From Escherichia coli (GTDB lineage: Bacteria; Pseudomonadota; Gammaproteobacteria; Enterobacterales; Enterobacteriaceae), in NCBI RefSeq assembly GCF_003019035.1, contig NZ_CP027447.1: a stretch of DNA of 64,000 nt, one strand, 5' to 3'. Positions 35,079-62,322 of the stretch are shown piece after piece. Position 1 is the stretch's first letter, and every line of letters begins with the position of its first letter. The position numbers and the translations under genes were made by a program. A model generated the notes under the pieces. It did no database searches. It saw only the letters and a list, made by a program, of their open reading frames with translations, and was not told where the DNA came from.

Positions 35079-35651
35079 TTACAACTCAGCTTGAGTTTGA
35101 AGTTCCTCTACAGGGTGATAACGATAAATCGTCGATATACCGATATCGTAAATAATTGCCAACTGTTTCCTGCTATAGCCATTTTTGATCAGCCTTGCTA
35201 TTTGTTCATGTTGCTCTTTTGTCAGTTTCGGACGACGTCCACCAATACGCCCCTGTGCACGTGCTGCTTCAAGTCCGGCCAGTGTTCGTTCGACTATTAA
35301 TTCACGCTCCATTTCCGCTAAAGCCCCCATGACGTGAAAAAAGAAACGTCCCATGGGTGTTGACGTATCAATGCTGTCTGTAAGACTACGGAAGTTAACC
35401 CCTTTTTCCCGCAGTTCCTCAATAAGAGTGATTAGGTGTTTCATGCTTCTGCCCAGCCTGTCCAGCTTCCAGACAACGAGCGTATCTCCTTCTGATAACG
35501 TTCTGAGCAGCTTTTTCAATCCCGGTCGGGCTGACTTTGTTCCGCTGATTTTATCCTCAAAAATCAGTTCACATCCTGCGCAGTTCAGTGCGTTTCGTTG
35601 TAAATCTGTATTCTGGTCATTTGTTGACACACGAATGTAGCCAATTTGCAT
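35079..35651 (-). CDS. Serine-recombinase DNA invertase (Gin/Pin/Hin family)
   Basis: Start taken at MQIGYIRVSTNDQNTDLQRNAL (190 aa); catalytic-Ser N-terminal motif and C-terminal HTH; closest to Pin/Gin by memory. Track ORF 35079..35846 is over-extended. Confidence 0.92.
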   Translation of the reverse strand: MQIGYIRVSTNDQNTDLQRNALNCAGCELIFEDKISGTKSARPGLKKLLRTLSEGDTLVVWKLDRLGRSMKHLITLIEELREKGVNFRSLTDSIDTSTPMGRFFFHVMGALAEMERELIVERTLAGLEAARAQGRIGGRRPKLTKEQHEQIARLIKNGYSRKQLAIIYDIGISTIYRYHPVEELQTQAEL

Positions 35652-35722
35652 GAAAAATATCCTCTTTGTTTTGTTAAAAATACATAGCTGGTATAGGTGG
35701 GAGTTAAGACGAAAACGTTGGT

Positions 35723-36184
35723 TTGGGGGAAGGCTCTGCACTACCTGTTGGTGTGCCTGTTCCATGGCCGTCAGCCACACCGCCAACAGGGTGGCTGAAA
35801 TGTAACGGTGCAGCATTTTCTTCTGAAATGTACCCCAATCTGGCAAAGGCTTACCCCACGAATAAATTACCGGATTTACGGGGCGAATTTATCCGTGGCT
35901 GGGATGACGGACGAGGTATTGATGCAGGACGAGAGATACTTTCATTTCAGGAAGGCACTATCGTCTCCGGTTTTGATGATAATGATACTGGGGATATCAG
36001 TTCACTTAGCTCAACACAATACGGATTTGGTGACACTCTAACCTCTAATCAATGGGGGGCCATAAATGGCAAAAAGTGGATATTTGATGCATCCAGTAAA
36101 GGTGCACAAAAATATGACTGGTGGGCTTATGTATCAGCTCGTCCGCGTAATATTGCATTTAATTACATCGTAAGAGCGGCATAG
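35723..36184 (+). CDS. Tail-fibre C-terminal alternative cassette A (start-less, inverted relative to the fibre gene)
   Basis: Shares the conserved block GEGSALPVGVPVPWPSATPPTGWLKCNGAAFSSE...RGEFIRGWDDGRGID and the conserved end RPRNIAFNYIVRAA with the expressed fibre; no ATG (the track start is an alternative TTG codon). Confidence 0.7.
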   Translation: MGEGSALPVGVPVPWPSATPPTGWLKCNGAAFSSEMYPNLAKAYPTNKLPDLRGEFIRGWDDGRGIDAGREILSFQEGTIVSGFDDNDTGDISSLSSTQYGFGDTLTSNQWGAINGKKWIFDASSKGAQKYDWWAYVSARPRNIAFNYIVRAA

Positions 36185-36194
36185 AAACGTTGGT

Positions 36195-36671
36195 TTGGGG
36201 GAAGGCTCTGCACTGCCCGTTGGTGTACCTGTTCCGTGGCCCTCAGCCACTCCACCAACGGGCTGGCTGAAATGCAACGGCGCAGCATTTTCTTCTGAAG
36301 ATTACCCCAAACTGGCACAGGCTTACCCCGCGAACAAATTACCGGATCTACGGGGTGAATTTATCCGTGGCTGGGATGACGGGCGAGGGATTGATGCAGG
36401 ACGTGCTTTATTAAGCTTTCAAACTGGGATGCTGGAAAAACACCGCCATATTGTTGTAGCTAACGATGGGTATGACACAAAGGATGAATGGGAGTTGGCC
36501 ACAATTTTCAAAAAAACATATACACAAGGACGGGGACTTGATGCCACAAGTACAGGCGGGAGTCTGATCCCATCACCGACACTTCATTCACGAGGGAGTA
36601 TTGGTAACACTGGTGGTAGTGAAACTCGCCCCCGCAATATCGCATTTAACTATATCGTGAGGGCGGCTTAA
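36195..36671 (+). CDS. Tail-fibre C-terminal alternative cassette B (start-less, inverted)
   Basis: Same conserved 5' block and 3' end as cassette A, with a different central region; immediately follows cassette A. Confidence 0.7.
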   Translation: MGEGSALPVGVPVPWPSATPPTGWLKCNGAAFSSEDYPKLAQAYPANKLPDLRGEFIRGWDDGRGIDAGRALLSFQTGMLEKHRHIVVANDGYDTKDEWELATIFKKTYTQGRGLDATSTGGSLIPSPTLHSRGSIGNTGGSETRPRNIAFNYIVRAA

Positions 36672-36677
36672 TTATAC

Positions 36678-37295
36678 TCAACTGGCTGCTGCCAGAGGCA
36701 TTTCCGGCCAGTTGATATCCGGTGCAGTGCTGATGTCAGTCGCATTAAGCGTATCTATGAAATCAAGCACGGCGTTTAGTTTTTCCGTCTCCTGGGGCGT
36801 CAATCGGCGTCCGGCTCGTAGTTTGAGATTAATAAGCTCAACAGATGCCATTGCCTGTTCCTCAAGTTGCTGACGATGCGCTCCGGCAGCTTCCAGTTCT
36901 GCTGCGTGCTGTCGTCTCGTATCTGTCACCCAAATCTCACCATCCCAGACATCATAGATAGTAGCTGGCTGTTTCACCGTCGTATCAGGAGGGTAATCTC
37001 CCGGTTGTGTGATTTGCACAGCGTTACCATTCTCTGTGCTGTAAACCGTTTCGCCTCTGTGGTCTGGAACATATTTCCAGATGTTCTGGTCGGTATCACG
37101 ACAGACAGCGAAGCCGGGGCGTTTTTCTGGTGGCGCGTCAATGCATGAGTGAGCCGGAATTCCAACACCATAAGCGAGATACTCAACAGTGGCAGAGAGA
37201 TATTCACGGTTTTCAGCATCGTAGTTATAAACGGTAATATCGCCTGCAGTTATAGCGATACCATTCTGATCAAGTACTGCAGCAGCATTATTCAT
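36678..37295 (-). CDS. Tail-fibre assembly protein (Mu U / P2 G-like chaperone)
   Basis: 205-aa ORF of the tail-fibre assembly family; its start overlaps the cassette C stop (TAATG). Confidence 0.8.
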   Translation of the reverse strand: MNNAAAVLDQNGIAITAGDITVYNYDAENREYLSATVEYLAYGVGIPAHSCIDAPPEKRPGFAVCRDTDQNIWKYVPDHRGETVYSTENGNAVQITQPGDYPPDTTVKQPATIYDVWDGEIWVTDTRRQHAAELEAAGAHRQQLEEQAMASVELINLKLRAGRRLTPQETEKLNAVLDFIDTLNATDISTAPDINWPEMPLAAAS

Positions 37296-37819
37296 TAAGT
37301 AGCCCTTACAATATAGTTAAACGCAATATTACGGGGGCGGTTTTCCGTTCCTGTATTCCCTCCGTTGGCACCTAATCTATAAACACCACGAGTGCCAATA
37401 GCACGTAGTGAAGATGGAACTTTTACACCTGACTCATCTGTTTTAACAATCCCGCCATCACCGTATGTAGCCAGTATACCAGGGTTTGTTCCTGCACGGG
37501 TGCTGTTTGCGGCAAGCCCTTCACCAGTCCATAACTCCATATAATGAATATGATCTATAACCGAATGTGATTGTGCATTAAGCAAGGAACGCCCTGAATC
37601 AATTCCCCGCCCGTCATCCCAGCCACGAATAAACTCGCCCCGTAAATCCGGTAATTTATTGGTGGGGTAAGCCTTTGCCAGTTTGGGGTACATTTCAGAA
37701 GAAAATGCTGCACCGTTACATTTCAGCCACCCCGTTGGCGGCGTGGCTGAAGGCCATGGAACGGGCACACCAACGGGCAGCGCCGAGCCTTCCCCTAAAC
37801 CAACGTTTTCATGCGGCTC
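37295..37819 (-). CDS. Tail-fibre C-terminal alternative cassette C (start-less, direct orientation)
   Basis: Frame is open from the stop at 37820-37822; encodes ENVGLGEGSALPVGVPVPW...ENRPRNIAFNYIVRAT; no ATG. Confidence 0.7.
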   Translation of the reverse strand, partial: EPHENVGLGEGSALPVGVPVPWPSATPPTGWLKCNGAAFSSEMYPKLAKAYPTNKLPDLRGEFIRGWDDGRGIDSGRSLLNAQSHSVIDHIHYMELWTGEGLAANSTRAGTNPGILATYGDGGIVKTDESGVKVPSSLRAIGTRGVYRLGANGGNTGTENRPRNIAFNYIVRAT

Positions 37820-38351
37820 TTACGATGTAATTGAATGCAACGTTGCGGGGGCGTGTTTCTGCTGTGCCGACAATACTGGTACTCAGTCCTGTCGCTGTTC
37901 GTTTGTTATTTTTATTCCCTTCGATAAGACAGTTGTAATCGTCATTACCAATTAACGAGTTGGTGGCATCAATACCGTCCGGGGACAAGGCATTAGTTGT
38001 GGAACTTAAAGTCAGCATCTCGTCTGAACTTGGAAGATTTTTTAATGGGGTCTCATTACGTGAAATACCCGCATAAAAAAAGGACTCATGCCTGTGCGCT
38101 TCAAAAGAGTCATCCTGAAGACTTAGCAAGGCACGCCCAGCATCCAAGCCACGTCCATCATCCCAGCCACGGATAAATTCACCCCGTAGATCCGGTAATT
38201 TGTTCGCGGGGTAAGCCTGTGCCAGTTTGGGGTAATCTTCAGAAGAAAATGCTGCGCCGTTGCATTTCAGCCAGCCCGTTGGTGGAGTGGCTGAGGGCCA
38301 CGGAACAGGTACACCAACGGGCAGTGCAGAGCCTTCCCCAAACCAACGTTT
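37809..38351 (-). CDS. Tail-fibre C-terminal alternative cassette D (start-less, direct; G-tract one nt shorter than in the others)
   Basis: Conserved 5' block and RPRNVAFNYIVRAA end; the frame begins directly after the fibre gene's TAG stop; ggtttgggg here versus ggtttggggg in the fibre and cassettes A and B. Confidence 0.65.
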   Translation of the reverse strand, partial: KRWFGEGSALPVGVPVPWPSATPPTGWLKCNGAAFSSEDYPKLAQAYPANKLPDLRGEFIRGWDDGRGLDAGRALLSLQDDSFEAHRHESFFYAGISRNETPLKNLPSSDEMLTLSSTTNALSPDGIDATNSLIGNDDYNCLIEGNKNNKRTATGLSTSIVGTAETRPRNVAFNYIVRAA

Positions 38352-39317
38352 CTATGCTGCTCTCACAATGTAGTTAAAGGCGATGTTGCGTGGACGAGTT
38401 ACATTAAAAAAGGACCCACTTAAAGCAGCTTTGGCACGACCAGCGACGTTACCCAGAATTGCATACCATAAATAATCACTCCTGTAATTCGTTGAAAATG
38501 TTTTATCGCCACCGTAATCAATACTATTTCCGTTACTCATATATGAAATATCAACTGCGGCATCATTGTCATCTCTACCACCAACCAAAGTACCTTTCTG
38601 CCACCCAAGCAACTGGCGACCAGGATCAATCCCGCGCCCGTCATCCCAGCCACGGATAAATTCACCCCGTAAATCCGGTAATTTATTGGTGGGGTAAGCT
38701 TTTGCCAGTTTGGGATACATTTCAGAAGAAAATGCTGCACCGTTACATTTCAGCCAGCCCGTTGGTGGTGTTGCTGAGGGCCACGGAACAGGCACACCAA
38801 CGGGCAGCGCAGAGCCTTCCCCCAAACCAAGGTTTTTGACAAACAGCGCAGGATCAGGAATATCTGCGCCGTTCTGGTCTTTAGCCAGCTTTTCCGCCAG
38901 CTTGTTCAGTACCGTAGTCGCAAAGTTTGGATCATTACCGAGAGCGTCAGCCAGCTCTTTAAGCGTATCCAGTGTCTCAGGGGCGCTGCCTGCAAGCGCC
39001 GCAAGTGCTTTGGCCACAAACTCCGTTGTCGCCAGCTTTTTGCTGTTATCGCCATTTGCAGGTGTAGGTGCTGTTGGTGTGCCGGTGAATGTCGGACTGG
39101 CTTTCTGTGCGTACTGGGTATGCGGGTCTGCTGCCGCGATGTGTTTCGCAAGGTCAGCCCCGCCTTTTTCAACCTGTTGCTTCAGGTACAGCGTGCGGCT
39201 GGCCAGTTGTTTACCCTGACGGTTAGAAATTCCGTCAGGTCCGCCCAGAACGGGGTCAGAGACCTCAATCTGGTAGATGCCGTCTTCCCACTGCGGGGTT
39301 TCGGGTAGATTTGCCAT
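38352..39317 (-). CDS. Tail fibre protein (constant N-terminal part plus the currently fused variable C-terminal part)
   Basis: 321-aa ORF; residues from about 165 onward carry the same conserved block and end as the cassettes. Confidence 0.88.
   Translation of the reverse strand: MANLPETPQWEDGIYQIEVSDPVLGGPDGISNRQGKQLASRTLYLKQQVEKGGADLAKHIAAADPHTQYAQKASPTFTGTPTAPTPANGDNSKKLATTEFVAKALAALAGSAPETLDTLKELADALGNDPNFATTVLNKLAEKLAKDQNGADIPDPALFVKNLGLGEGSALPVGVPVPWPSATPPTGWLKCNGAAFSSEMYPKLAKAYPTNKLPDLRGEFIRGWDDGRGIDPGRQLLGWQKGTLVGGRDDNDAAVDISYMSNGNSIDYGGDKTFSTNYRSDYLWYAILGNVAGRAKAALSGSFFNVTRPRNIAFNYIVRAA
38817..38842. promoter_or_regulatory. Candidate invertase crossover site (hix/gix-like 26-bp imperfect palindrome) at the fibre constant/variable junction
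   Basis: TTCCCCCAAACC-AA-GGTTTTTGACAA; the right half matches the hixL half GGTTTTTGATAA at 11 of 12 positions (consensus recalled from memory); an equivalent GGTTTGGGGGAA half-site starts every cassette. Confidence 0.4.
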
Positions 39318-39319
39318 AA

Positions 39320-39898
39320 TTAACTGCTCCCGTGGTTGTAACTACCGTTATAACGGGTAGTACTGTTGTATCGAATGGCGACAGACTGATATTCCAGACT
39401 TGCCAGATGACAGCGAGCCGGAGCAAAGGCAGCAAGCGTCTGACGTAACAGCGCCGCCTGATCGTTAGTGATGGGTTGTTGAAGGATGACGCGATAGACT
39501 GCCCAGGCTTGTGCATCACCATGGACGAAAAGCCCGTTGTACGTGTGTCTGCCGTCATAGCCAATCTGCCCCGTACCTTCAATCAGATCCACTTCGCCGA
39601 AGCCAAAACGGCGGATAATTTCCCGGATTGACCACGGTGTTCCTTTATAGCGGTGTAGCTCGATAGCGGATTTGATAAGCATGCGGCGCACATCGTCCGA
39701 TTCCGCCAGTTCCCAGCCATCGCCGAACAGCGAGAACTGCTCGCCAAGCCATGGCAGCGCGGAACTGTCGACAATATCGACGAGACCGACCATCAGTACG
39801 CTCAGGTCGATGTTATCCAGCCGTCCGGCCAGTCTTCCCAGCGTTCTGAGACTGATATCACCCTCAAGCGGTGGCGGGAGTTGTAGCACCTCAGCCAT
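39320..39898 (-). CDS. Baseplate/tail protein (P2 gpI-like)
   Basis: 192-aa ORF directly upstream of the fibre gene, in the position and of the size of P2 I / Mu gp48. Confidence 0.65.
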   Translation of the reverse strand: MAEVLQLPPPLEGDISLRTLGRLAGRLDNIDLSVLMVGLVDIVDSSALPWLGEQFSLFGDGWELAESDDVRRMLIKSAIELHRYKGTPWSIREIIRRFGFGEVDLIEGTGQIGYDGRHTYNGLFVHGDAQAWAVYRVILQQPITNDQAALLRQTLAAFAPARCHLASLEYQSVAIRYNSTTRYNGSYNHGSS

Positions 39899-39976
39899 CG
39901 GACACCCCGGTCATGTTAAGAGTGATCGCCGTACAGTTTGCCCATTCGTTTTCTGCCACCACCCTCAGTGCCGGTG

Positions 39977-40993
39977 TCACCAGTTCGACCGGTACACCCC
40001 GGAAACGGACAACACGCTGATAATCTGGCTGGGAACAATATCGCGCCCCAGCGTGGCGGTACGGGATGCCACCCAGTTCTGTATGGCGCTGTTAGCGTTG
40101 TCCTTTACCAACCTTGCATCCTGATCACGATAGATCGTAATCCTGGCTTCAATGGTGTAATCCACCTGAACAGGTGTTTTAGCCCGCACGGTATCAGTGA
40201 GTGGTCTGACTTTTTCGTCAGAACAGAAACTCTCTACCAGAGTGAGGATACTGCTGTCCGGCAGACCAGTGCTGAGCAGCGGATACAGCTCGACAGTGCC
40301 GGGAGCGGGAGAAAGAACAGCAACGTCGACAATGCCGGGATGCGCCCCCATAGCATGAAAACGGTATGCACCACGGCTTCCGGCATTGGTGAATGACTCC
40401 GGGGCCAGCCTGATACGCTCCCGGAGTCGGTCATCGTCTTCCTGCTCTGAACCGCCAGAGCTGGCCGTCAGATTGGTCACCAGCAGGTCAATGTTATCAA
40501 TCTCATCGAGTAACTGACTGACCTGCGCCGGTTGCCAGCCGTTGCCAGCGGTACCCGGCTCGGTACAGGTGGCCGTGACATTGACCAGCAGCAATCCGGC
40601 CTTCAGCACCACATCTGTATCGGTGGCAAAAATAATACTGTCGGAAGCGCTGACGCGGGTGCCTGCCGGGATCAGCACATCAATGGCCAGTGCCTCATCC
40701 ACAGAGAACTGAAGTGTGGTGGTGGCAGGCTGCGCAGCAAGGCGGTATACACCGACCAGTTCACCGAGGTAATCAATCATCGGCTCCCGGGAAAAGGCGA
40801 CCAGATTCAGCTTCGCCGCCTCCTGTACCGCCACCCTGACCAGCATTTCGCGATAGGCCCACAGGTCTATCAGCAGACGTTCTGCCTGTGCCGGGTACAA
40901 CGTTTTGCCGGTATCCGCTTCATACTTCGCAATCATTTCTGCCGTGATTTTATCGGCATCGCGTTCAATAAAATCGGGTTCTGTCAGCGCCAT
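39977..40993 (-). CDS. Baseplate protein J-like (P2 gpJ / Mu gp47)
   Basis: 338-aa ORF; overlaps the W-like gene upstream. Confidence 0.75.
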   Translation of the reverse strand: MALTEPDFIERDADKITAEMIAKYEADTGKTLYPAQAERLLIDLWAYREMLVRVAVQEAAKLNLVAFSREPMIDYLGELVGVYRLAAQPATTTLQFSVDEALAIDVLIPAGTRVSASDSIIFATDTDVVLKAGLLLVNVTATCTEPGTAGNGWQPAQVSQLLDEIDNIDLLVTNLTASSGGSEQEDDDRLRERIRLAPESFTNAGSRGAYRFHAMGAHPGIVDVAVLSPAPGTVELYPLLSTGLPDSSILTLVESFCSDEKVRPLTDTVRAKTPVQVDYTIEARITIYRDQDARLVKDNANSAIQNWVASRTATLGRDIVPSQIISVLSVSGVYRSNW

Positions 40994-41331
40994 AGCAGTT
41001 CCTGAGTACGGGGTTGTCCGTCTGAGCCTTTCCAGCTCACCCGGAGCGTAAGATGTTCGCCGTCGACGGCGGGTTTAACCGACATAAGCTGGCAGCGGGG
41101 TTCCCAGCGCCTGATGGCATCGACGGATTCGCGAACCACATGCGGAATGGCCCGGTCGACAGGCCAGTCGATATAAAGGTGCAGATTGCTGCCGAACTCC
41201 GGGCGATGCGGGTCGCTGCCGCGGGGAGTCCGCAGGATGATCTGGATGGACTGCCGGATATCATCCAGCCCCCGGACGATTTCGCCGGGAGCCTGCAGAG
41301 CTGGTTGCCAGAATACTGAGGTCGTTTTCAT
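40984..41331 (-). CDS. Baseplate wedge protein (P2 gpW / T4 gp25-like)
   Basis: 115-aa ORF with a GPW/gp25-like sequence. Confidence 0.75.
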   Translation of the reverse strand: MKTTSVFWQPALQAPGEIVRGLDDIRQSIQIILRTPRGSDPHRPEFGSNLHLYIDWPVDRAIPHVVRESVDAIRRWEPRCQLMSVKPAVDGEHLTLRVSWKGSDGQPRTQELLWR

Positions 41332-41387
41332 GGAGGCAGTATTGCCCCCGGGAAGTAAGCACCGATATTAAAGGCGTTTAAGAAGGT

Positions 41388-41915
41388 TCAATGGGAATGG
41401 TGATTAGAGTTCTGACCATCTGCAAATATGTTACCCGTTGCATGGGCGCTTCCGTTGATTTCCAGATCACCATTGAGTGTCGCGGGGCCGTTGATCGTGG
41501 TAACTCCCGTGAGGTCGAGGTTTTTCCCTTTGAGAGAGATATCAGCGGCAACCTCCACCACGATACGCTCAATACCTCCTCTGACCGTCAGCGTATGGGT
41601 CGCGCGGTTATAACTGAACTCCGCGCCATCAGCGTATTTCGTACCCCGGACGTTTTTATCTCTGAACGGCGGTTTATCGACGTCTGAGTACACCGCGCCC
41701 AGAATAACACCATCCTCGCCGTTGGCATCGAGCAGCACCTCAACCTGCTCCCCCACGTCAGGGAGCCAGTAATCCTTGTTATCCTGGGTATTGCGCTGCA
41801 GCACGTTAAGCCAGTTTGTGCGCAGATTATCGCATTCAGGCAGACGAACGCGGGCCTGAACCCTGTCGGCATCCACGGCACTGACCGTACCGACCTGACG
41901 GGTGACACCAGTCAT
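41388..41915 (-). CDS. Baseplate spike/assembly protein (P2 gpV-like)
   Basis: 175-aa ORF; N-terminal OB-fold-like region followed by a Gly-rich tip. Confidence 0.7.
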   Translation of the reverse strand: MTGVTRQVGTVSAVDADRVQARVRLPECDNLRTNWLNVLQRNTQDNKDYWLPDVGEQVEVLLDANGEDGVILGAVYSDVDKPPFRDKNVRGTKYADGAEFSYNRATHTLTVRGGIERIVVEVAADISLKGKNLDLTGVTTINGPATLNGDLEINGSAHATGNIFADGQNSNHHSH

Positions 41916-43066
41916 TTTTTCTTCTCCTTAATCACCGTCGATGTACTGCCATCCGGGTGATAAACCGTGAGTTTCTGAGTTTTTTGTTTTTTCCCTCTTG
42001 TGACTGGCCCCCGTGCCACTTCCAGCTCTGTGGTGTAGCCGCTGTTACGCTCAAACGCATGGCGGGCAGTGGTTATGAGCCATGGCCCGGATAACTGCCC
42101 AAAGCCCACCAGTTCAATTTTGTTGCCTGCTGTCAGTTGAGGCGTTCCCGTCAGCGTCAGGGAGCCGTTCTGCTGGTATTCGTTATGTCTGGCCAGTGCT
42201 GAATCCGCTTTAATCCGGGCACTGTCCGGGTCGCTGACGCGACTGTTAACTTTAAGTGAGTCAGCGCTGGTAACCTTACCACCTTTGAGCTTTTTGTCGC
42301 TTTCACGGGTACCACCATCAGCTTCGTAGACGATCAGTTTTTTACTGCTGCTTTTCTGGTGTTTTACCTTTGCAGATTTATAGACCCGGTTGATGGTGTC
42401 ACGCAGGGAAAAGCGGGCCACATCCTGCGGTTTTAACTGCCTGACCGGCTCCTGACTGCGCAGTGTGGCCAGATGAGAAAAAATCAGCTGGTCACTGACC
42501 ACTTTCACTGCATAACCATACTCGCTGGCCAGCCGGCGCAGAAAACCCACGTCGGTTTCAGCATACTGGGTCACCCGGTCGATTCTGATGGACTCAATGC
42601 TGCCCACCAGTTTCAGCCGGTGCTTTCTGGCAATCCGCCCCGCAACAGCTGCCAGCGTGGTGTTCTCAAAACCACGGCTGGATTTAGTCCGCAGAGCACT
42701 GTTAACCGAGGTGGCCACCCCACGGATAGCGACAACGGACGCGGGCGAACTCACTTCGATCTCGTCTATTGAGAATGTACCGCAGGACAGCAGTTTCTCG
42801 CCCTGATAACCCATTTTCAGCGTCAGCGTGTCACCCTTGCCCGGATACCACTTATCCAGCCAGCGGCCATCGGTGTCGTCCAGCTCCACCTCAATGGTAT
42901 CGGACTCATTTTTGATGTTATCGCTCCAGACCACACGGGTGACATAAGGCGCGATATCAGAGGTGATGTTTTTCTGCAGATACCACAGAGTGAATACCGG
43001 CGTCAGCACATCGCTGACGCCGGTTAACGCTGATGTGGCTTGCGCAGTACTGTTTATCTCAGCCAT
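41912..43066 (-). CDS. Tail protein gpD-like (late control D / baseplate hub)
   Basis: 384-aa ORF in the position of P2 D / Mu P. Confidence 0.75.
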   Translation of the reverse strand: MAEINSTAQATSALTGVSDVLTPVFTLWYLQKNITSDIAPYVTRVVWSDNIKNESDTIEVELDDTDGRWLDKWYPGKGDTLTLKMGYQGEKLLSCGTFSIDEIEVSSPASVVAIRGVATSVNSALRTKSSRGFENTTLAAVAGRIARKHRLKLVGSIESIRIDRVTQYAETDVGFLRRLASEYGYAVKVVSDQLIFSHLATLRSQEPVRQLKPQDVARFSLRDTINRVYKSAKVKHQKSSSKKLIVYEADGGTRESDKKLKGGKVTSADSLKVNSRVSDPDSARIKADSALARHNEYQQNGSLTLTGTPQLTAGNKIELVGFGQLSGPWLITTARHAFERNSGYTTELEVARGPVTRGKKQKTQKLTVYHPDGSTSTVIKEKKK

Positions 43067-43269: not shown

Positions 43270-44150
43270 ACACTCCTCGTCAGTATTCTGGCGGCCATTG
43301 CACTTAATCCCGGAGACATGCGGTTGAATGCTGTGCCGGCGGCGTTAAGCTGCCCGGAAACGGTATCCAGAGCACCTGCAATATTTCTTTTGTCCACACC
43401 ACTCAGCGCCGACTGCGCCTGCTGTACATACGTGGCTGCCTCACTGGCTGTTCTGGCCAGACTGATGGCATCGGGCATGGATTCAGAGAGTGCATTAAAC
43501 GCCGGAACACTTTTCCCCAGAGCTCCGGATATATTACCCAGTCCGCTCATCAGTCCCGGCACACGGGTCAGCGCGACAACGGGGTTACCCTTCATTTTCT
43601 GCGCCACCCGAACGGCACTGATAGTGGTCTGGAGTACAGACTGCGCCTGTTTCGCATAGTTGACGCCGTTACGGACGAACTGCGCCACCCCGGAAGGCGA
43701 TGGAACAGCACCAGATACGGCCCCGGCACCGGGAACCTGCCTGCGTATTGCCGGCGGTTGCAGAGGATTTTTCGGGTCACCGGTGTATTCCCGGAGAGAC
43801 ACGGTGGCACTGACAGCCAGCACGTTACCGGTGCTGTCTGTCTGCTCGCTGGTTGCGGTCACATCGGTAATCACGAACCAGCCGCGATAGTCACCGTTGC
43901 CGAAGACCAGCGCCAGTGCCTGATGGGCCTTCATGGCTGTTCGCACTCTCGCCAGCTCCACGTCGGGCACACAATAATGCTGATGGAAGACCAGGCTTAT
44001 CTGGATTTCGTCCAGCCTGTCGCCGACGAACTGCAGGCCGGGTTTACCCTCGATGCGGGCATGCTCCGCATAATCGACGCCAAACGTGGCCTCGAAGCCG
44101 TCCCAGTAGGTAATCAGTTCAAACTCAATATCACCCAGTACGGCAAACAT
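43266..44150 (-). CDS. Tail protein, gpU-like N-terminal domain with Ala/Gly/Ser-rich extension
   Basis: 294-aa ORF immediately downstream of the tape measure gene. Confidence 0.55.
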   Translation of the reverse strand: MFAVLGDIEFELITYWDGFEATFGVDYAEHARIEGKPGLQFVGDRLDEIQISLVFHQHYCVPDVELARVRTAMKAHQALALVFGNGDYRGWFVITDVTATSEQTDSTGNVLAVSATVSLREYTGDPKNPLQPPAIRRQVPGAGAVSGAVPSPSGVAQFVRNGVNYAKQAQSVLQTTISAVRVAQKMKGNPVVALTRVPGLMSGLGNISGALGKSVPAFNALSESMPDAISLARTASEAATYVQQAQSALSGVDKRNIAGALDTVSGQLNAAGTAFNRMSPGLSAMAARILTRSV

Positions 44151-46615
44151 CAGCTGTACTCCTTACGTTGTTTCTGAGCCAGCAGACGCTCCAGCATTTT
44201 TTCCAGCTCATGCAGGCTCATATTCAGGGCACCAGCCAGCCCGGCAGGCGCTGCGGTTTCCTTACCATTGAGGAAAAACTGAGGATTAAAGCTGACCTGG
44301 ATACCGCCAGACGCTCCACCGCCGGTTGCCGTTGCGCCACGGCCTGAATATCCGGCAGCCATGATTTCCGGCGACGGGATACGGGGAACATCCGGTGTCA
44401 TTTCAGCGGCCAGACGCTGCCCGGCCAGTGCAGCAAGCGGAGTGGTCCGTTGCAGGCCAATGGCGGCACCCTGCGCGATATTGTCACCAAAGCCTATAAA
44501 CACGCGACTCGGTGAATGGATGCCCAGCTTTTCGCTGAACCAGTCACTGATGCTGTCACCCATTCCGGTTATGCTGGTTTTCAGTGACTCCCATTTGTTT
44601 CTGATGCCATTTATCAGCCCGTCAATAAGATGACCACCGAAGTCGGTGAATTTCGCCGGCAAATCAACGCCGAGATATTTCAGCGCAGCCGCAAAGGCTT
44701 TATAAAGCAGACCTGCCGGAGACCAGTTAACCAGCAGTTTACCAATTCCCGCGATACCGCCGTTAAAGGCTTCCTGAATGTCAGCCCAGCGCTGTTTAAA
44801 CCAGCTACTGACCGCGCCCCAGTTGCGGTAGATAAGGTAAGCTGCTGCCGCGACGGCGGTGATAGCGAGACCGATGGGATTCATCATCAGCGCCCGGCCA
44901 ATCCAGAGAACGGCACGCCCGGCGCTCATAATTCCGCGAACCAGCCCCCCTGAGAGCACACCCCCCAGTGTTCTGGCTCCTCTGGCGACGGCACCAAAGC
45001 CTGTCACCAGCCAGCGGAGTTTACCGCCTTCCCCCAGTGCGAGCATCAGACGAAGCCAGTTGGCCCGAAGTAAAACAGCATTTTTCCAGACGCTTACAAA
45101 GGGGGAAATAAGGAGATTCAGCCCAAACTTGAGACCGATAGTGGCCATCCTGAAAGCGAGTAATGCGCCCACAACCTTTATGGTGCTGCTGACGAGCTGC
45201 GGATTTGCCGCTATCCATTTGCCGACGCTGTCCATTAAAGGAATAAATGTTTCACCCAACTGGAGCAAAGCCGGACGCAAGGATTGCCCGATGCTGATAG
45301 CAGAATCATTAAAGCCGATCTGCATTCTGCGCCAGCGACCTTCAAGCGTATCATTCTGCTTTGCAGCATCCTTATCCAGGGTAGACATTGCAGCCGGAGC
45401 ATTCATTTCCTGCTTACTGGAAAGGTATTTATCCCAGCCCTGTCGCATTGACAGTAAATGGTTGACAGTCTGAATATCGGTAAAGACCTCAGCCAGACCA
45501 AATGACTCCATGAGTTTCTGCTGACCTTCCTGATCGCCTCTTGCTCCTGCAGCTTTCCATTGCTGCAAAAACGCTTTGCCTTTACTGTCGATAAAACGGT
45601 TGGCAATCATCAGTGAAGCTTCGTACTGCGAAAAACCCTGAGCGACGTAATTCTGCATTGACCCCGGGTAATCCACCCCGGCTTTAGCATATTTCTGGAT
45701 GGTATCTCCGCGGCCCATTGCTGCCAGCCAGTTGGACATATTGGTGACCGCTTCCTCTGCAGAGCCACTACCTTTACCGACCTCCAGACTGGCAACAATC
45801 TGGGTAATCGCATCTTTTCCATAAATACCACGAGCAGCGAAGGCTTTAGCCATACCGGGTAATGCTTTTGCCATATCCTTCAGCTCAAATGACCCAAGTT
45901 TGGCTCCTGTTGCCGCAATACCAAATGCCTGTTCAAGTTCTTTCGCATCAGTGATTCTGAGTGCATCGCTGAAGGCATAAGTCATTTTGGCAAGGTCGGT
46001 CATATCGGCTTTGGTTGCTGTAGCGGTCTTTCCAAGCATCTCTGCAAACGTTGCTGCCCGTTCGGGGGCCATACCATCAGCAACTAATTGTCCGACTCCC
46101 CCTAACAGAGACTCCTGCAGTTGGTTAACCTTCAGCGAGGCCTGTCTGATAGCCAGGCCAATTGCACGTTCCTGTTTTGCATCCAGGTCTCCTGTGACAC
46201 TGATATCCCGTAACTGTGATTCAAACGAGGCATATTGTTTAACCGAGGCCATGACCGGTGCGCCCAGCGTTCTGCCAATAGCATAGGTTTCTGCACCCTG
46301 ACCATAGAGCGCCAGGCGGTTAGCCTTCAACGCATCACCGGTGGCTGATACTGCTGACAGACGGCGCTGCTGACGTTCAATTTGCTCCATGGTGCGGCTT
46401 ACCCGCAGCAACTCGCTGTTGAGATGCTGCATCCGGGAAGAACCCAGTTGACCATAACGTTCTGTTGCCCGGGTTAAGGCATTCTGGCGTTCCTGCAGAC
46501 GGCGGGAGGTATCACCAAGGGAATCAAGGGCGCGTCGGGTGCCACTGACGGCTGAGCGGAAGCTGCTCCCGACAATGCCGCCAATAATGACGCCGACTGA
46601 AAATTCACTGGCCAC
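44150..46615 (-). CDS. Tail tape measure protein
   Basis: 821-aa ORF; long helical/Ala-rich protein with hydrophobic central segments, in the canonical position after the chaperone pair. Confidence 0.88.
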   Translation of the reverse strand: MASEFSVGVIIGGIVGSSFRSAVSGTRRALDSLGDTSRRLQERQNALTRATERYGQLGSSRMQHLNSELLRVSRTMEQIERQQRRLSAVSATGDALKANRLALYGQGAETYAIGRTLGAPVMASVKQYASFESQLRDISVTGDLDAKQERAIGLAIRQASLKVNQLQESLLGGVGQLVADGMAPERAATFAEMLGKTATATKADMTDLAKMTYAFSDALRITDAKELEQAFGIAATGAKLGSFELKDMAKALPGMAKAFAARGIYGKDAITQIVASLEVGKGSGSAEEAVTNMSNWLAAMGRGDTIQKYAKAGVDYPGSMQNYVAQGFSQYEASLMIANRFIDSKGKAFLQQWKAAGARGDQEGQQKLMESFGLAEVFTDIQTVNHLLSMRQGWDKYLSSKQEMNAPAAMSTLDKDAAKQNDTLEGRWRRMQIGFNDSAISIGQSLRPALLQLGETFIPLMDSVGKWIAANPQLVSSTIKVVGALLAFRMATIGLKFGLNLLISPFVSVWKNAVLLRANWLRLMLALGEGGKLRWLVTGFGAVARGARTLGGVLSGGLVRGIMSAGRAVLWIGRALMMNPIGLAITAVAAAAYLIYRNWGAVSSWFKQRWADIQEAFNGGIAGIGKLLVNWSPAGLLYKAFAAALKYLGVDLPAKFTDFGGHLIDGLINGIRNKWESLKTSITGMGDSISDWFSEKLGIHSPSRVFIGFGDNIAQGAAIGLQRTTPLAALAGQRLAAEMTPDVPRIPSPEIMAAGYSGRGATATGGGASGGIQVSFNPQFFLNGKETAAPAGLAGALNMSLHELEKMLERLLAQKQRKEYS

Positions 46616-47506: not shown

Positions 47507-48028
47507 TCAGCCCCCGATATTGATCCGATAGTCAGTCAGTTGATCAACGCCACCGACGCGGAAGATGTTGGCCAGATAGTCCAGTTGCAGCAACTCTTCA
47601 CCATCCAGTACCTGTCTGATATACGTGCAGGTGAAGCTACTGGAGAACTCGGCGTTCTCGTGCTGTTTAAACGTCCCCAGCGGGTTCTTCTTGAACATAA
47701 TTGTCAGGAAGGTGACCAGCGGGATTTCGTCGATCAGCCCCTGCGAGCTGTAGCGCTGGACGCTGGAGCGACACTGCAGCGCCAGCGACCTGTACGGGTT
47801 CGCGGCAGACAGCATCGCATCGCGGTAAAAGCTGTTCCATTTGATTTCGCCTTCCAGTTTGTCAAAACCAGCCGGGAGTTCCACCTTACCCACCATCCCC
47901 AGTGCCTTGTGCTCCTGCATAATCATGGAGACATCGGGGAGTTTAACCTCCTCAGCCCGTCCCAGCAGGTTAGTACCATCCAGATAGATGTTGGCATTCG
48001 TGATTCGGTTTATCTCAATCTTTGACAT
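47507..48028 (-). CDS. Tail tube protein (Mu gpM-like)
   Basis: 173-aa ORF immediately downstream of the sheath gene. Confidence 0.85.
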   Translation of the reverse strand: MSKIEINRITNANIYLDGTNLLGRAEEVKLPDVSMIMQEHKALGMVGKVELPAGFDKLEGEIKWNSFYRDAMLSAANPYRSLALQCRSSVQRYSSQGLIDEIPLVTFLTIMFKKNPLGTFKQHENAEFSSSFTCTYIRQVLDGEELLQLDYLANIFRVGGVDQLTDYRINIGG

Positions 48029-49455
48029 CAGTTGCCCCCTTTCAGGGTTAACAGGTATTCCGAGGTGATCTCAGTCTCAAACGTCAGTCGCTCCAGCGGC
48101 GGTGGTGGCGTATATTTGTAGCTCAGCAACAGGTGCCCGGCGGCCAGCTCCGTTTCCGGATTGCGGGCCGGATCAAACCAGCAACGGAAGCCCAGTACCG
48201 CGCCATCACCAGTCATTTTGCGACCGTAAGCGTTGACCGACTCCGTCAGTGCATCAATCAGCGCCTGAGTAATCGGCATGTCGATGTACTGCTGGCTGAA
48301 GTAACGAATGGACTCATTGATCACATCACCGGTGCGGCGAACGTTCTCAAAGTTACGCATATGGGTGACCGTTGGCCATGCTGCCGTCCGGTTACCCCAC
48401 AGACGAAGGCCGCTGCCGTAACTGCTGAATACCGTGGTGATCCCCTGTTCGTTAAGCAGGTTCACCTCGCTCTGCGGATCGTCAATCATTGCCGACAGCT
48501 GGCGCTCCACGCCGGTGATCCCCAGAATCTCCTGATTGGAGGATGACCACCAGTACCCTTTGTCCAGGTCGACTCTGGCACGCAGGCCCGCCGCACGCTG
48601 GCTCAGTGGCTCCAGACGCTCCGTGTTCGTCACCGGGTCATATACCTTCACATGCGGGTAGCACAGGCGGACACGGTCAGAGCTGGTATTAAAGTTAATG
48701 GTGCCTTCCGGGCCACGTCCCGCCAGAGCCTGCGCAAAAGTGGTACCAACCGGCGCATCAATATAGGTTACTGCTCCCAGTTTCTCAGCCATGGCGATAA
48801 GCTCAACCGAGACGCTGTTCTGGGTGCAGAATACCGGAGCAATCAGGATTTTGGCGAAGTAGCCAAACAGGTTAAAACTGTCGTTAAGCAGCTTCATGCC
48901 GGTACGGTTGCCTGCAGCGTTAACGGTACCGATGATATCAGCCGGGGTGACTTTGGTCGGATCAGCATAGTTATAGCTGGCCTTCACCGTTGCATCTGCA
49001 GCAATGCTTTTACCCAGGTTAGTAATCACCCCGGTCTGTGCATCAAGCGAGTAGTCCTGACCTTCAACATAAGGCTGACCGTCGCTGTCCGGTTTCAGTA
49101 CCAGCTGCGCGACCACCGGATTAGCCAGCCGGGCTCTGCCTGTCGCCTTGTCGAACGACACATTCTCACTGACCACAGCGGTTTTATGCACAGACGGATC
49201 GAGTACGTTAATGACCAGAACGGTGCCTGCACCATGGTCATAAATCGCATCCAGCGCCTGCGGAATGGTAAAGCCGGTGAACTGGCTGCCAAATGCCGCT
49301 GCGTCTTTCTCAGACAGGCACTGTACCAGCGTATTGACATCCCCCATTGGTGCGGTACCAATCAGGCCAATAACGGCAGATTTCACCGTTTTAACCGGGC
49401 GGGCACCGTTTTCCACTTCAATGGTTTCGACGCCATGCAGATAGTTAGCTGCCAT
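48028..49455 (-). CDS. Contractile tail sheath protein (Mu gpL-like)
   Basis: 475-aa ORF in the sheath family. Confidence 0.9.
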   Translation of the reverse strand: MAANYLHGVETIEVENGARPVKTVKSAVIGLIGTAPMGDVNTLVQCLSEKDAAAFGSQFTGFTIPQALDAIYDHGAGTVLVINVLDPSVHKTAVVSENVSFDKATGRARLANPVVAQLVLKPDSDGQPYVEGQDYSLDAQTGVITNLGKSIAADATVKASYNYADPTKVTPADIIGTVNAAGNRTGMKLLNDSFNLFGYFAKILIAPVFCTQNSVSVELIAMAEKLGAVTYIDAPVGTTFAQALAGRGPEGTINFNTSSDRVRLCYPHVKVYDPVTNTERLEPLSQRAAGLRARVDLDKGYWWSSSNQEILGITGVERQLSAMIDDPQSEVNLLNEQGITTVFSSYGSGLRLWGNRTAAWPTVTHMRNFENVRRTGDVINESIRYFSQQYIDMPITQALIDALTESVNAYGRKMTGDGAVLGFRCWFDPARNPETELAAGHLLLSYKYTPPPPLERLTFETEITSEYLLTLKGGN

Positions 49456-61557: not shown

Positions 61558-62322
61558 ATGAAAATGCAGTCATTACCCATCGTTCCATGGATTGGTGGCA
61601 AACGCCGCCTTGCAAAACACATTCTGCCGCTGTTTCCGGCGCATGAATGTTATGTGGAGCCGTTTTGTGGGGCAGCAGCGCTCTATTTTCTTAAGACACC
61701 CGGCAAGATCGAAGTCATTAATGATATCAACGGTGAACTGGTGAATCTGTACCGGGTGGTAAAGCATCACCTGGAAGAATTTGTCCACCAGTTCAAATGG
61801 GCGCTGGTCAGCCGTCAGATCTACAAGTGGCTGCAGATCACCCCGGAAGAAACACTGACGGATATCCAGCGTGCAGCACGGTTCTACTACCTCCAGAAGC
61901 AGGCGTTTGGCGGCAAGGTAGCAGAACACAGCTTCGGTACCTCCACCACATCCCCGCCACGCTTCAACCTGCTGCGTATTGAAGAAGAACTGTCAGCGGC
62001 ACACCTGCGACTTTCCAGAACAGTCATAGAACACATGGACTGGCAACAGTGCATTGAGCGCTATGATCGTCCGCACACGCTGTTCTACTGTGATCCGCCG
62101 TATCTGGGTACGGAAGGCTATGGTGTGGATTTTCCTGAAGGGAACTACTCGCGGCTGGCAGAGCTGGCCCGGTGCATCAGAGGAAAAATGATAATTTCGG
62201 TGAACGACATCCCGCAGATGCGCGAGGTGTTCACTGGACTGAACATACAGACAGTGAATATCAACTACAGTCTGGCGGGGAAACCCACGCCGCGCCGTGA
62301 ACTGATAATCTGCAACTTCTGA
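61558..62322 (+). CDS. DNA adenine methyltransferase (Dam / D12 class N6-adenine MTase)
   Basis: 254-aa ORF with an N-terminal AdoMet-binding region and the DPPY catalytic motif (YCDPPYLGTEGYG). Confidence 0.85.
   Translation: MKMQSLPIVPWIGGKRRLAKHILPLFPAHECYVEPFCGAAALYFLKTPGKIEVINDINGELVNLYRVVKHHLEEFVHQFKWALVSRQIYKWLQITPEETLTDIQRAARFYYLQKQAFGGKVAEHSFGTSTTSPPRFNLLRIEEELSAAHLRLSRTVIEHMDWQQCIERYDRPHTLFYCDPPYLGTEGYGVDFPEGNYSRLAELARCIRGKMIISVNDIPQMREVFTGLNIQTVNINYSLAGKPTPRRELIICNF

Follow-up and report, generated by a model that had tools for sequence, protein, structure and literature searches.

In the G segment of Mu, the C segment of P1 and the P2-like phage pro483, a Gin-type invertase acts on 26-bp sites that lie in the open reading frame (ORF) of a tail fibre, and two alternative fibre tips are each followed by their own tail fibre assembly (tfa) gene, the start of which overlaps the stop of the tip (the layout in pro483 is inv< [collar tip> tfa>] [tfa'< fibre<]). 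In the Min system of p15B and in P1-like phage-plasmids, a Din-family serine invertase adjoins overlapping invertible segments, the sites also lie in the fibre ORF and there are many alternative 3' ends; p15B has six crossover sites. In this study, we have examined a window of 64,000 nucleotides from an Escherichia coli genome (contig NZ_CP027447.1; the window is the whole stretch of DNA that was analysed), in which the tail fibre gene of a prophage is associated with five alternative tip cassettes, A to E, and a single tfa gene. This locus uses multiple inversion of the Gin/Min type to exchange the receptor-binding tip of a single tail fibre, and our main concern is how one assembly gene, translationally coupled to one of the cassettes, could serve the other tips.

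By the features that we compared, the locus belongs to the known Gin/Min class, with p15B and the P1-like plasmids as its relatives. It shares with them the adjoining Din-family invertase, the overlapping segments, the position of the sites and the multiplicity of 3' ends, and the P1-like plasmid pEH09-18-41_2 also has an invertible hinge with one tfa gene. There are clear differences from p15B: the system of the window is chromosomal, it serves a short fibre of 321 aa, it is associated with a Mu/P2-like baseplate and it has five sites. With Mu, P1 and pro483, the locus shares the Gin-type invertase, the 26-bp sites within the fibre ORF and the order of tip and then tfa, with overlapping stop and start. 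It is nevertheless not a segment of the Mu G or P1 C type, because the tips are not each paired with a tfa of their own: there are five tips and one tfa where those systems have two of each, and cassette B, the partner at the other end of the hinge, has neither a tfa gene nor a remnant of one in the 6-bp gap beside it. Another likeness is offered by the Enterobacter phage FRphi, described as having a tail fibre 'shufflon' in which a Gin homologue swaps several fibre C-termini, with isoforms at 50:25:25 (PMC13418256). Going by that description, FRphi differs from our locus in having three tips, and the paper makes no mention of a chaperone. Finally, the tips resemble those of the lambda/HK97 Stf-Tfa and T4 gp37-gp38 modules in their gp37-type collar, in the HxH needle of cassettes B, C and D and in a C-terminal ...NIAFNYIVR. 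In HK97, Stf terminates in RPRNIAFNYIVRAV, and the Tfa coupled to it (gp29) is about 60% identical to the Tfa of the window. Those modules, however, are single, non-invertible tip-chaperone pairs, and cassettes A and E have no HxH motif.

Five cassettes, one hinge and 48 isomers

In the current assembly, the tail fibre gene (38352-39317, minus strand, 321 aa) consists of a constant part (38829-39317) fused to tip E (38352-38828). The silent cassettes D (37809-38344) and C (37295-37801) lie on the minus strand, and the silent cassettes B (36192-36671) and A (35720-36184) on the plus strand. They are followed by the terminal gene of the prophage, a Gin/Min-type serine DNA invertase (35079-35651, minus strand, co-oriented with the fibre gene), which matches Pfam Resolvase (1.7e-51) and HTH_7; its residues 1-183 match the Mu Gin structures 3UJ3/4M6F (E=3e-90), and it is 96% identical to the invertase of the multi-cassette locus on pEH09-18-41_2. 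Each of the five cassettes has a near-invariant collar of about 73 aa (PF07484, E~1e-14), then a variable region of 70-95 aa and an invariant C-terminal end, RPRN[IV]AFNYIVRA[AT], of which the conserved end is RPRNIAFNYIVRA. HxH motifs occur in B and D (HRH in both) and in C (HIH), but not in A or E. Cassette C shows homology to the T4 gp37 tip 2XGF (E=1.9e-19), in an alignment that extends over collar, HxH region and C-terminal NIAFNYIVR.

Five 26-bp crossover sites of 12-2-12 layout and of the form TTCCCCCAAACC-AA-SGTTT..., with AA/TT as the core throughout, lie within the fibre reading frame, and every cassette starts inside one of them. Three sites point one way: site 1, within the fibre ORF (38817-38842, plus strand, TTCCCCCAAACC AA GGTTTTTGACAA), site 2, at the tail of E and the start of D (38333-38358, plus strand), and site 3, at the tail of D and the start of C (37790-37815, plus strand). 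Two point the other way: site 4, at the tail of A and the start of B (36178-36203, minus strand, core at 36190-36191), and site 5, between the outer flank and the start of A (35706-35731, minus strand, core TT at 35718-35719, AAGACGAAAACG TT GGTTTGGGGGAA), the sequence of which we take to resemble hixL/gix. When the locus is cut at the core dinucleotides, it falls into four invertible segments, namely three 'start-tail' segments (E, D and A) and one 'start-start' segment (C-tfa-B'), the hinge. The geometry of the sites demands exactly one hinge, and tfa, the sole gene among the segments that is not a cassette, is seated in it.

The tfa gene (36678-37295, minus strand) lies between C and B and encodes a Tfa of the lambda/HK97 type of 205 aa. 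The protein matches Pfam Caudo_TAP (PF02413) over aa 80-200 (E=8.7e-26; the score of 91.1 bits exceeds the cutoff of 22.1) and, along its full length, PHROG 105, 'tail fiber assembly' (5.5e-83). Its start overlaps the stop of C in a TAATG with one base shared (37293-37297, minus strand; the plus strand reads CATTA), and a Shine-Dalgarno AAGGG (37303-37307, minus strand) stands at a spacing of 7 nt from the ATG. On the other side, a gap of 6 bp (36672-36677) separates the convergent stops of B, which ends at 36671, and of tfa, at 36678. An AlphaFold2 (AF2) model of Tfa (predicted local distance difference test score, pLDDT, 89) is beta-rich over aa 1-124 and continues in two helices. Proteins of the Tfa family have been described as modular, with an N-terminal fibre-binding beta domain and a conserved C-terminal helical domain (North 2019, cited in PMC9608196). 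In precomputed annotations, all Tfa homologues carry a second Pfam family, PF28596, beside PF02413; it gave no match in the local Pfam scan and is presumably the conserved N-terminal domain of Tfa.

A valid arrangement of the locus places a number k of ordinary cassettes forward, then the hinge in either direction and then the remaining cassettes reversed, so that 48 isomers are possible. In a breadth-first search that allowed inversion between inverted sites, all of them were reached in at most four inversions. The same combinatorics of start-tail segments and hinge, applied to one ordinary cassette and one hinge, predict the 50:25:25 isoforms of FRphi. In the present isomer, E>D>C>tfa>B<A<, tfa is in sense with the fibre gene and lies 1,056 nt 3' of the fibre stop. 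Tips E (321 aa), A (317 aa) and D would each be expressed in 12 isomers, with tfa in sense in six and antisense in six. Tip C (331 aa) would be expressed in six isomers, always with an overlapping tfa in sense, and tip B (322 aa) also in six, always with an antisense tfa that converges on it at 6 bp. Overall, tfa is in sense in 24 of the 48 isomers, the present state included, and antisense in the other 24, among them every B fusion.

The D fusion is out of frame and stops at 188 aa because of a 1-nt deletion in its crossover half-site (the D-side half of site 2, shifted by the deletion), which reads GGGG for GGGGG. This is unique among the 132 sites with a recognisable motif, and the relatives L009 and L010 have G5. 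The G4 may represent a true mutation or an error in sequencing the homopolymer. Taken as it stands, it gives a truncated fibre in the D fusions, that is in 25% of the isomers in silico.

An earlier, sequence-only reading of this stretch had described a single tfa gene coupled to C by TAATG and convergent on B across 6 bp, and the junctions are exactly so. It had also counted five tips for this one assembly gene; the gene is indeed alone, but since D is frameshifted, four tips are in frame and not five. The in silico modelling of each inversion product, which that reading had proposed, gave in-frame fusions for E, A, B and C. It bears out the expectation that a simple inversion fusing A or B to the constant part leaves tfa on the opposite strand, as far as single inversions from the present isomer are concerned; A, however, reaches a state with tfa in sense after two inversions, and B alone is obligately antisense. 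Furthermore, a second chaperone gene, which might have surfaced in an alternative isomer, did not appear. A hidden Markov model (HMM) of the Tfa family run against the six-frame translation of the 64 kb gave one match (E=7e-111), with the next best at E>1, and no Tfa-like ORF arises in the 47 other isomers when the stop-to-stop frames of all 48 are compared; the HMM scan is specific to its family and thus covers one chaperone family, not unrelated ones elsewhere in the prophage.

One tfa gene per locus and natural isomers

We compared 97 related loci, taken from E. coli genomes, from IMG/VR and from phage records. Exactly one tfa gene is present in all 22 loci that have at least three collar cassettes, and in every such locus with both flanks present it lies between convergent cassettes. 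The P1-like plasmid pEH09-18-41_2 (locus L004) is an example, with the invertase followed by four cassettes, one tfa and six further cassette matches (about ten tips). The details of the hinge are also preserved: the convergent gap is 6 nt in 22 of 27 hinges, and the one-base overlap, TAATG or TGATG, is kept in the listed junction types of coupled pairs. The sequence-only reading had contrasted the single assembly gene with the paired genes of Mu and P1. This contrast is real, as the two-tfa design occurs in the same family (phage pro483, L065), but the hinge with one tfa is not peculiar to the window. We regard the shared chaperone as a general design, probably a functional one, and not as an anomaly of this locus.

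Some loci retain a fragment of tfa opposite the intact gene, and there are a few apparent exceptions to the pattern, which may be assembly artefacts of mixed isomers. In L017 (IMG/VR 2747843146_000001), arranged as tfa> E< tfa< x8< inv>, a separate tfa accompanies an ordinary cassette; L065 resembles Mu in its two convergent tfa genes, and L038 has two tandem tip-tfa-invertase units. In L093 (the P1-like phage vB_EcoM-813R1), a tip-tfa pair is antisense to the fibre, with an unannotated gap of 375 nt; the invertase is annotated there as two fragments (Hin1 and Hin2) and the fibre gene as four, and this record may contain sequence errors.

Isomers of such loci are found in nature. One four-cassette prophage inserted at yehQ occurs in three arrangements in the strains DEF2, FEA3 and 8178. 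The mouse-derived isolates L002, L003, L007 and L008 of the yehQ prophage are closely related and represent different isomers. The IMG/VR contig L010 is 96% colinear with a predicted isomer of the window, A>D>C>tfa>B<E<, in that it has the same five cassettes in another order; this contig begins exactly at a crossover site. An assembly thus captures, or breaks at, a single state out of several that are mixed in the population. The tfa gene is antisense to the fibre gene in 8178, A33 and L009, and sense and antisense tfa stand at about 11:8 among 19 multi-cassette loci, as is expected if inversion in lysogens is unbiased. Moreover, strain CFIAFB20190167 (L006) has a natural fusion of the constant part with B, of 322 aa, with tfa convergent at 6 bp. 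For the exact junction of the constant part with C, the E. coli genomes gave no match at 80% cover or more, because the constant parts differ between prophages.

Tip specificity of Tfa and the orientation problem

To what extent a given Tfa is bound to a given tip can be read from the coupled pairs of related loci. The variable regions of 174 tips fall into 33 clusters, while the C-terminal 14 aa are 96% conserved across the same tips. The N-terminal domain of Tfa (aa 1-80) is well conserved in the family and does not track the type of tip. For example, N-domains of a single cluster (n=50, 90% identity or more) are coupled to tips from 15 clusters, 28 pairs of loci combine N-domains that are at least 95% identical with tips from different clusters, and three identical N-domains occur with both HxH and non-HxH tips. 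Tips of the B type and of the D type are directly coupled to a Tfa of the same family in other prophages, and C-type tips are also found coupled to tfa. The positions shift between loci; on pEH09-18-41_2, both C-type and B-type tips are ordinary cassettes. A precedent from outside the family is that lambda Tfa substitutes for T4 gp38 in the folding of gp37 (PMC9659904, citing Montag 1989).

Based on these results, we lean, by a little more than an even balance, towards a Tfa that is not tip-specific, serves all tips through their conserved parts and is co-transcribed by read-through when in sense. What favours such a generalist is the mismatch between N-domains and tips, the conserved collar and end, the coupling of B-type and D-type tips elsewhere and the precedent of lambda Tfa; the comparative data also fit the suggestion of the sequence-only reading that the common end lets one Tfa serve all tips. 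In this model, Tfa would recognise features common to the tips, the invariant collar and the C-terminal RPRNIAFNYIVRA strand being the putative docking site. By analogy with the T4 gp37 tip, the two would be expected close together. Since these features are common to all cassettes, one copy of tfa would suffice. With the hinge co-oriented with the fibre gene, tfa would be transcribed by late read-through and translated from its own AAGGG, and with C as the expressed tip it would be translated by coupling to C. The upstream baseplate genes (39320-43066, minus strand) show which way late transcription enters the fibre gene, and a consensus scan of the minus strand from the fibre stop to tfa showed no terminator-like structure. 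In the 24 antisense isomers, the tips would fold without a cis-encoded Tfa, borrow the Tfa of another prophage or give defective fibres.

Several observations weigh against a generalist Tfa supplied in this way. Because tfa is then antisense to the only evident transcript and has no promoter-like site of its own, a required chaperone would be lacking in half of the isomers, and always for B. The scan for sigma-70-like promoters upstream of tfa was blank on the tfa strand within C, although a consensus scan is a weak test that is blind to activator-dependent late promoters. B-type tips are nevertheless under purifying selection (dN/dS 0.10-0.11). Among 5,426 E. coli genomes and the 97 loci, no A-type or E-type tip is directly followed by tfa, and these tips may need no Tfa, since they are never directly coupled to it. 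Mu-type Tfa N-domains bind the tip and have been described as fibre-specific (PMC9608196), and the AF2 model of Tfa had no significant neighbour in the PDB.

The A-type and E-type tips deserve a closer look. They are related non-HxH tips with the motif ...G.DDND... and were seen in no other setting than that of an ordinary invertible cassette or of a convergent hinge partner. The matches to A-tfa or E-tfa at 80% cover or more are all in several pieces and represent A>C>tfa or E>C>tfa, and the single close match in a phage record has A in the convergent hinge position. These findings are the natural starting point for another explanation, which we hold to be unlikely, that Tfa serves its coupled partner C only, no dedicated chaperone being involved in the folding of the remaining tips and in particular of A and E, which lack HxH. 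The coupling of tfa to C alone agrees with this, as do the conservation of B, which is always expressed with tfa antisense, and the frequency of antisense isomers in nature (about 8 of the 19 multi-cassette loci). Against it, on the other hand, stand the near-identical N-domains that are coupled to many unrelated tip types and the B-type and D-type tips with a directly coupled Tfa of the same family in other prophages; C-type tips, furthermore, also occur as uncoupled ordinary cassettes, as in L004.

The conservation of B has a bearing on a further explanation, to which we give slightly less credence, namely that all tips need Tfa and that the antisense isomers (half of the total, with all B fusions) yield fibreless or misfolded, non-infectious particles, a waste that would be the price of compactness. 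The variable regions of B-type tips have a median dN/dS of 0.10, and the value in the convergent position is 0.108, with dS up to 0.5, which is hard to square with a tip that is never functional; this is tempered by the fact that B-type cassettes hold other positions in other loci. (The E-type dN/dS was not used, as there were too few pairs and one of them was saturated.) We also considered that B might be a decaying cassette and rejected this, as B is intact in every relative, has a dN/dS of about 0.1 and a natural fusion, and B-type tips coupled to tfa occur elsewhere. Non-functional A or B tips would have spoken against the sequence-only reading; we found no evidence of them, and the dN/dS and the natural fusion of B point the other way. 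In favour of tolerated waste are the blank promoter scan upstream of tfa together with the absence of another Tfa in the window, and the dead state that the prophage already bears in its frameshifted D fusions. Of three tip states that were locked in FRphi, only one could infect the host tested (PMC13418256), but this may simply reflect receptor specificity.

A supply of Tfa whatever the orientation of its gene, either from a promoter in the hinge (for example one inside C that depends on a late activator) or in trans from resident prophages, is marginally less credible still: the gene has its own Shine-Dalgarno, Tfa of this family is widespread (about 1,900 of the 5,426 E. coli genomes match the region) and the conserved N-domains make cross-complementation plausible, whereas the tfa strand in C shows no sigma-70 consensus, in a scan that cannot see activator-dependent promoters.

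It is just as doubtful, in our view, that the orientation of the hinge is a second, independent switch that gates the supply of Tfa, so that E and A would be made with or without Tfa and B always without it. If this were the case, the gp37-like HxH needle tip of B would fold without a dedicated chaperone, unlike T4 gp37. Retention of Tfa on the mature fibre has been reported for Mu and Ur-lambda. If Tfa also stayed on the mature fibre here, the same tip with and without Tfa could give two adsorption phenotypes, and the repertoire would be larger than the number of cassettes.

Returning to a generalist Tfa, the orientation problem is a genuine and modestly interesting question, for which Tfa-independent folding, supply in trans, an unseen promoter and tolerated waste are all possible answers. 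The antisense isomers allow one to ask, by experiment, whether gp37/Stf-type tips have a strict need of Tfa, and also what degree of 'waste' is tolerable to an inversion system that hedges its bets. Prophages of E. coli and P1-like plasmids very commonly carry such tip-swapping systems: about one third of the complete genomes searched match the region (median 2 places in a genome, maximum 23). The systems are also attractive for the engineering of host range. If any collar-type tip can really be folded by one Tfa, a new tip could be added without co-transfer of a chaperone.

Prophage setting and neighbouring genes

The window begins in the E. coli chromosome (gstA ... anmK, to about 34885) and continues into one end of the prophage. 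The prophage has a contractile tail, with genes for a tail sheath (48028-49455; phrog_23, 1.8e-141), a tape measure (44150-46615) and a baseplate module of the contractile-tail type with gpI-, gpJ-, gpW-, gpV- and gpD-like genes, which lies 5' of the fibre gene and, as given above, on the same strand. In the early region of the prophage, a DNA methyltransferase gene (61558-62322, plus strand; phrog_56, 2e-99) has no bearing on these findings.

Between 35800 and 38800, on both strands, the conserved DNA of the collar yields the same spurious antisense ORF five times (e.g. MPVWGNLQKKMLRRCISASPL...), and the collar repeat also prolongs the apparent ORF of the invertase upstream to a TTG at 35846. 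We rejected the antisense ORFs and the invertase extension as genes, as they are artefacts of the repeats. Finally, about 56 nt separate the gpV-like and gpW-like genes of the window (41331-41388), and at this place L002, L003 and L006 have a gene of 876 nt that encodes a protein with a PD-(D/E)XK nuclease domain, which may be a moron or a defence gene inserted into the tail operon.

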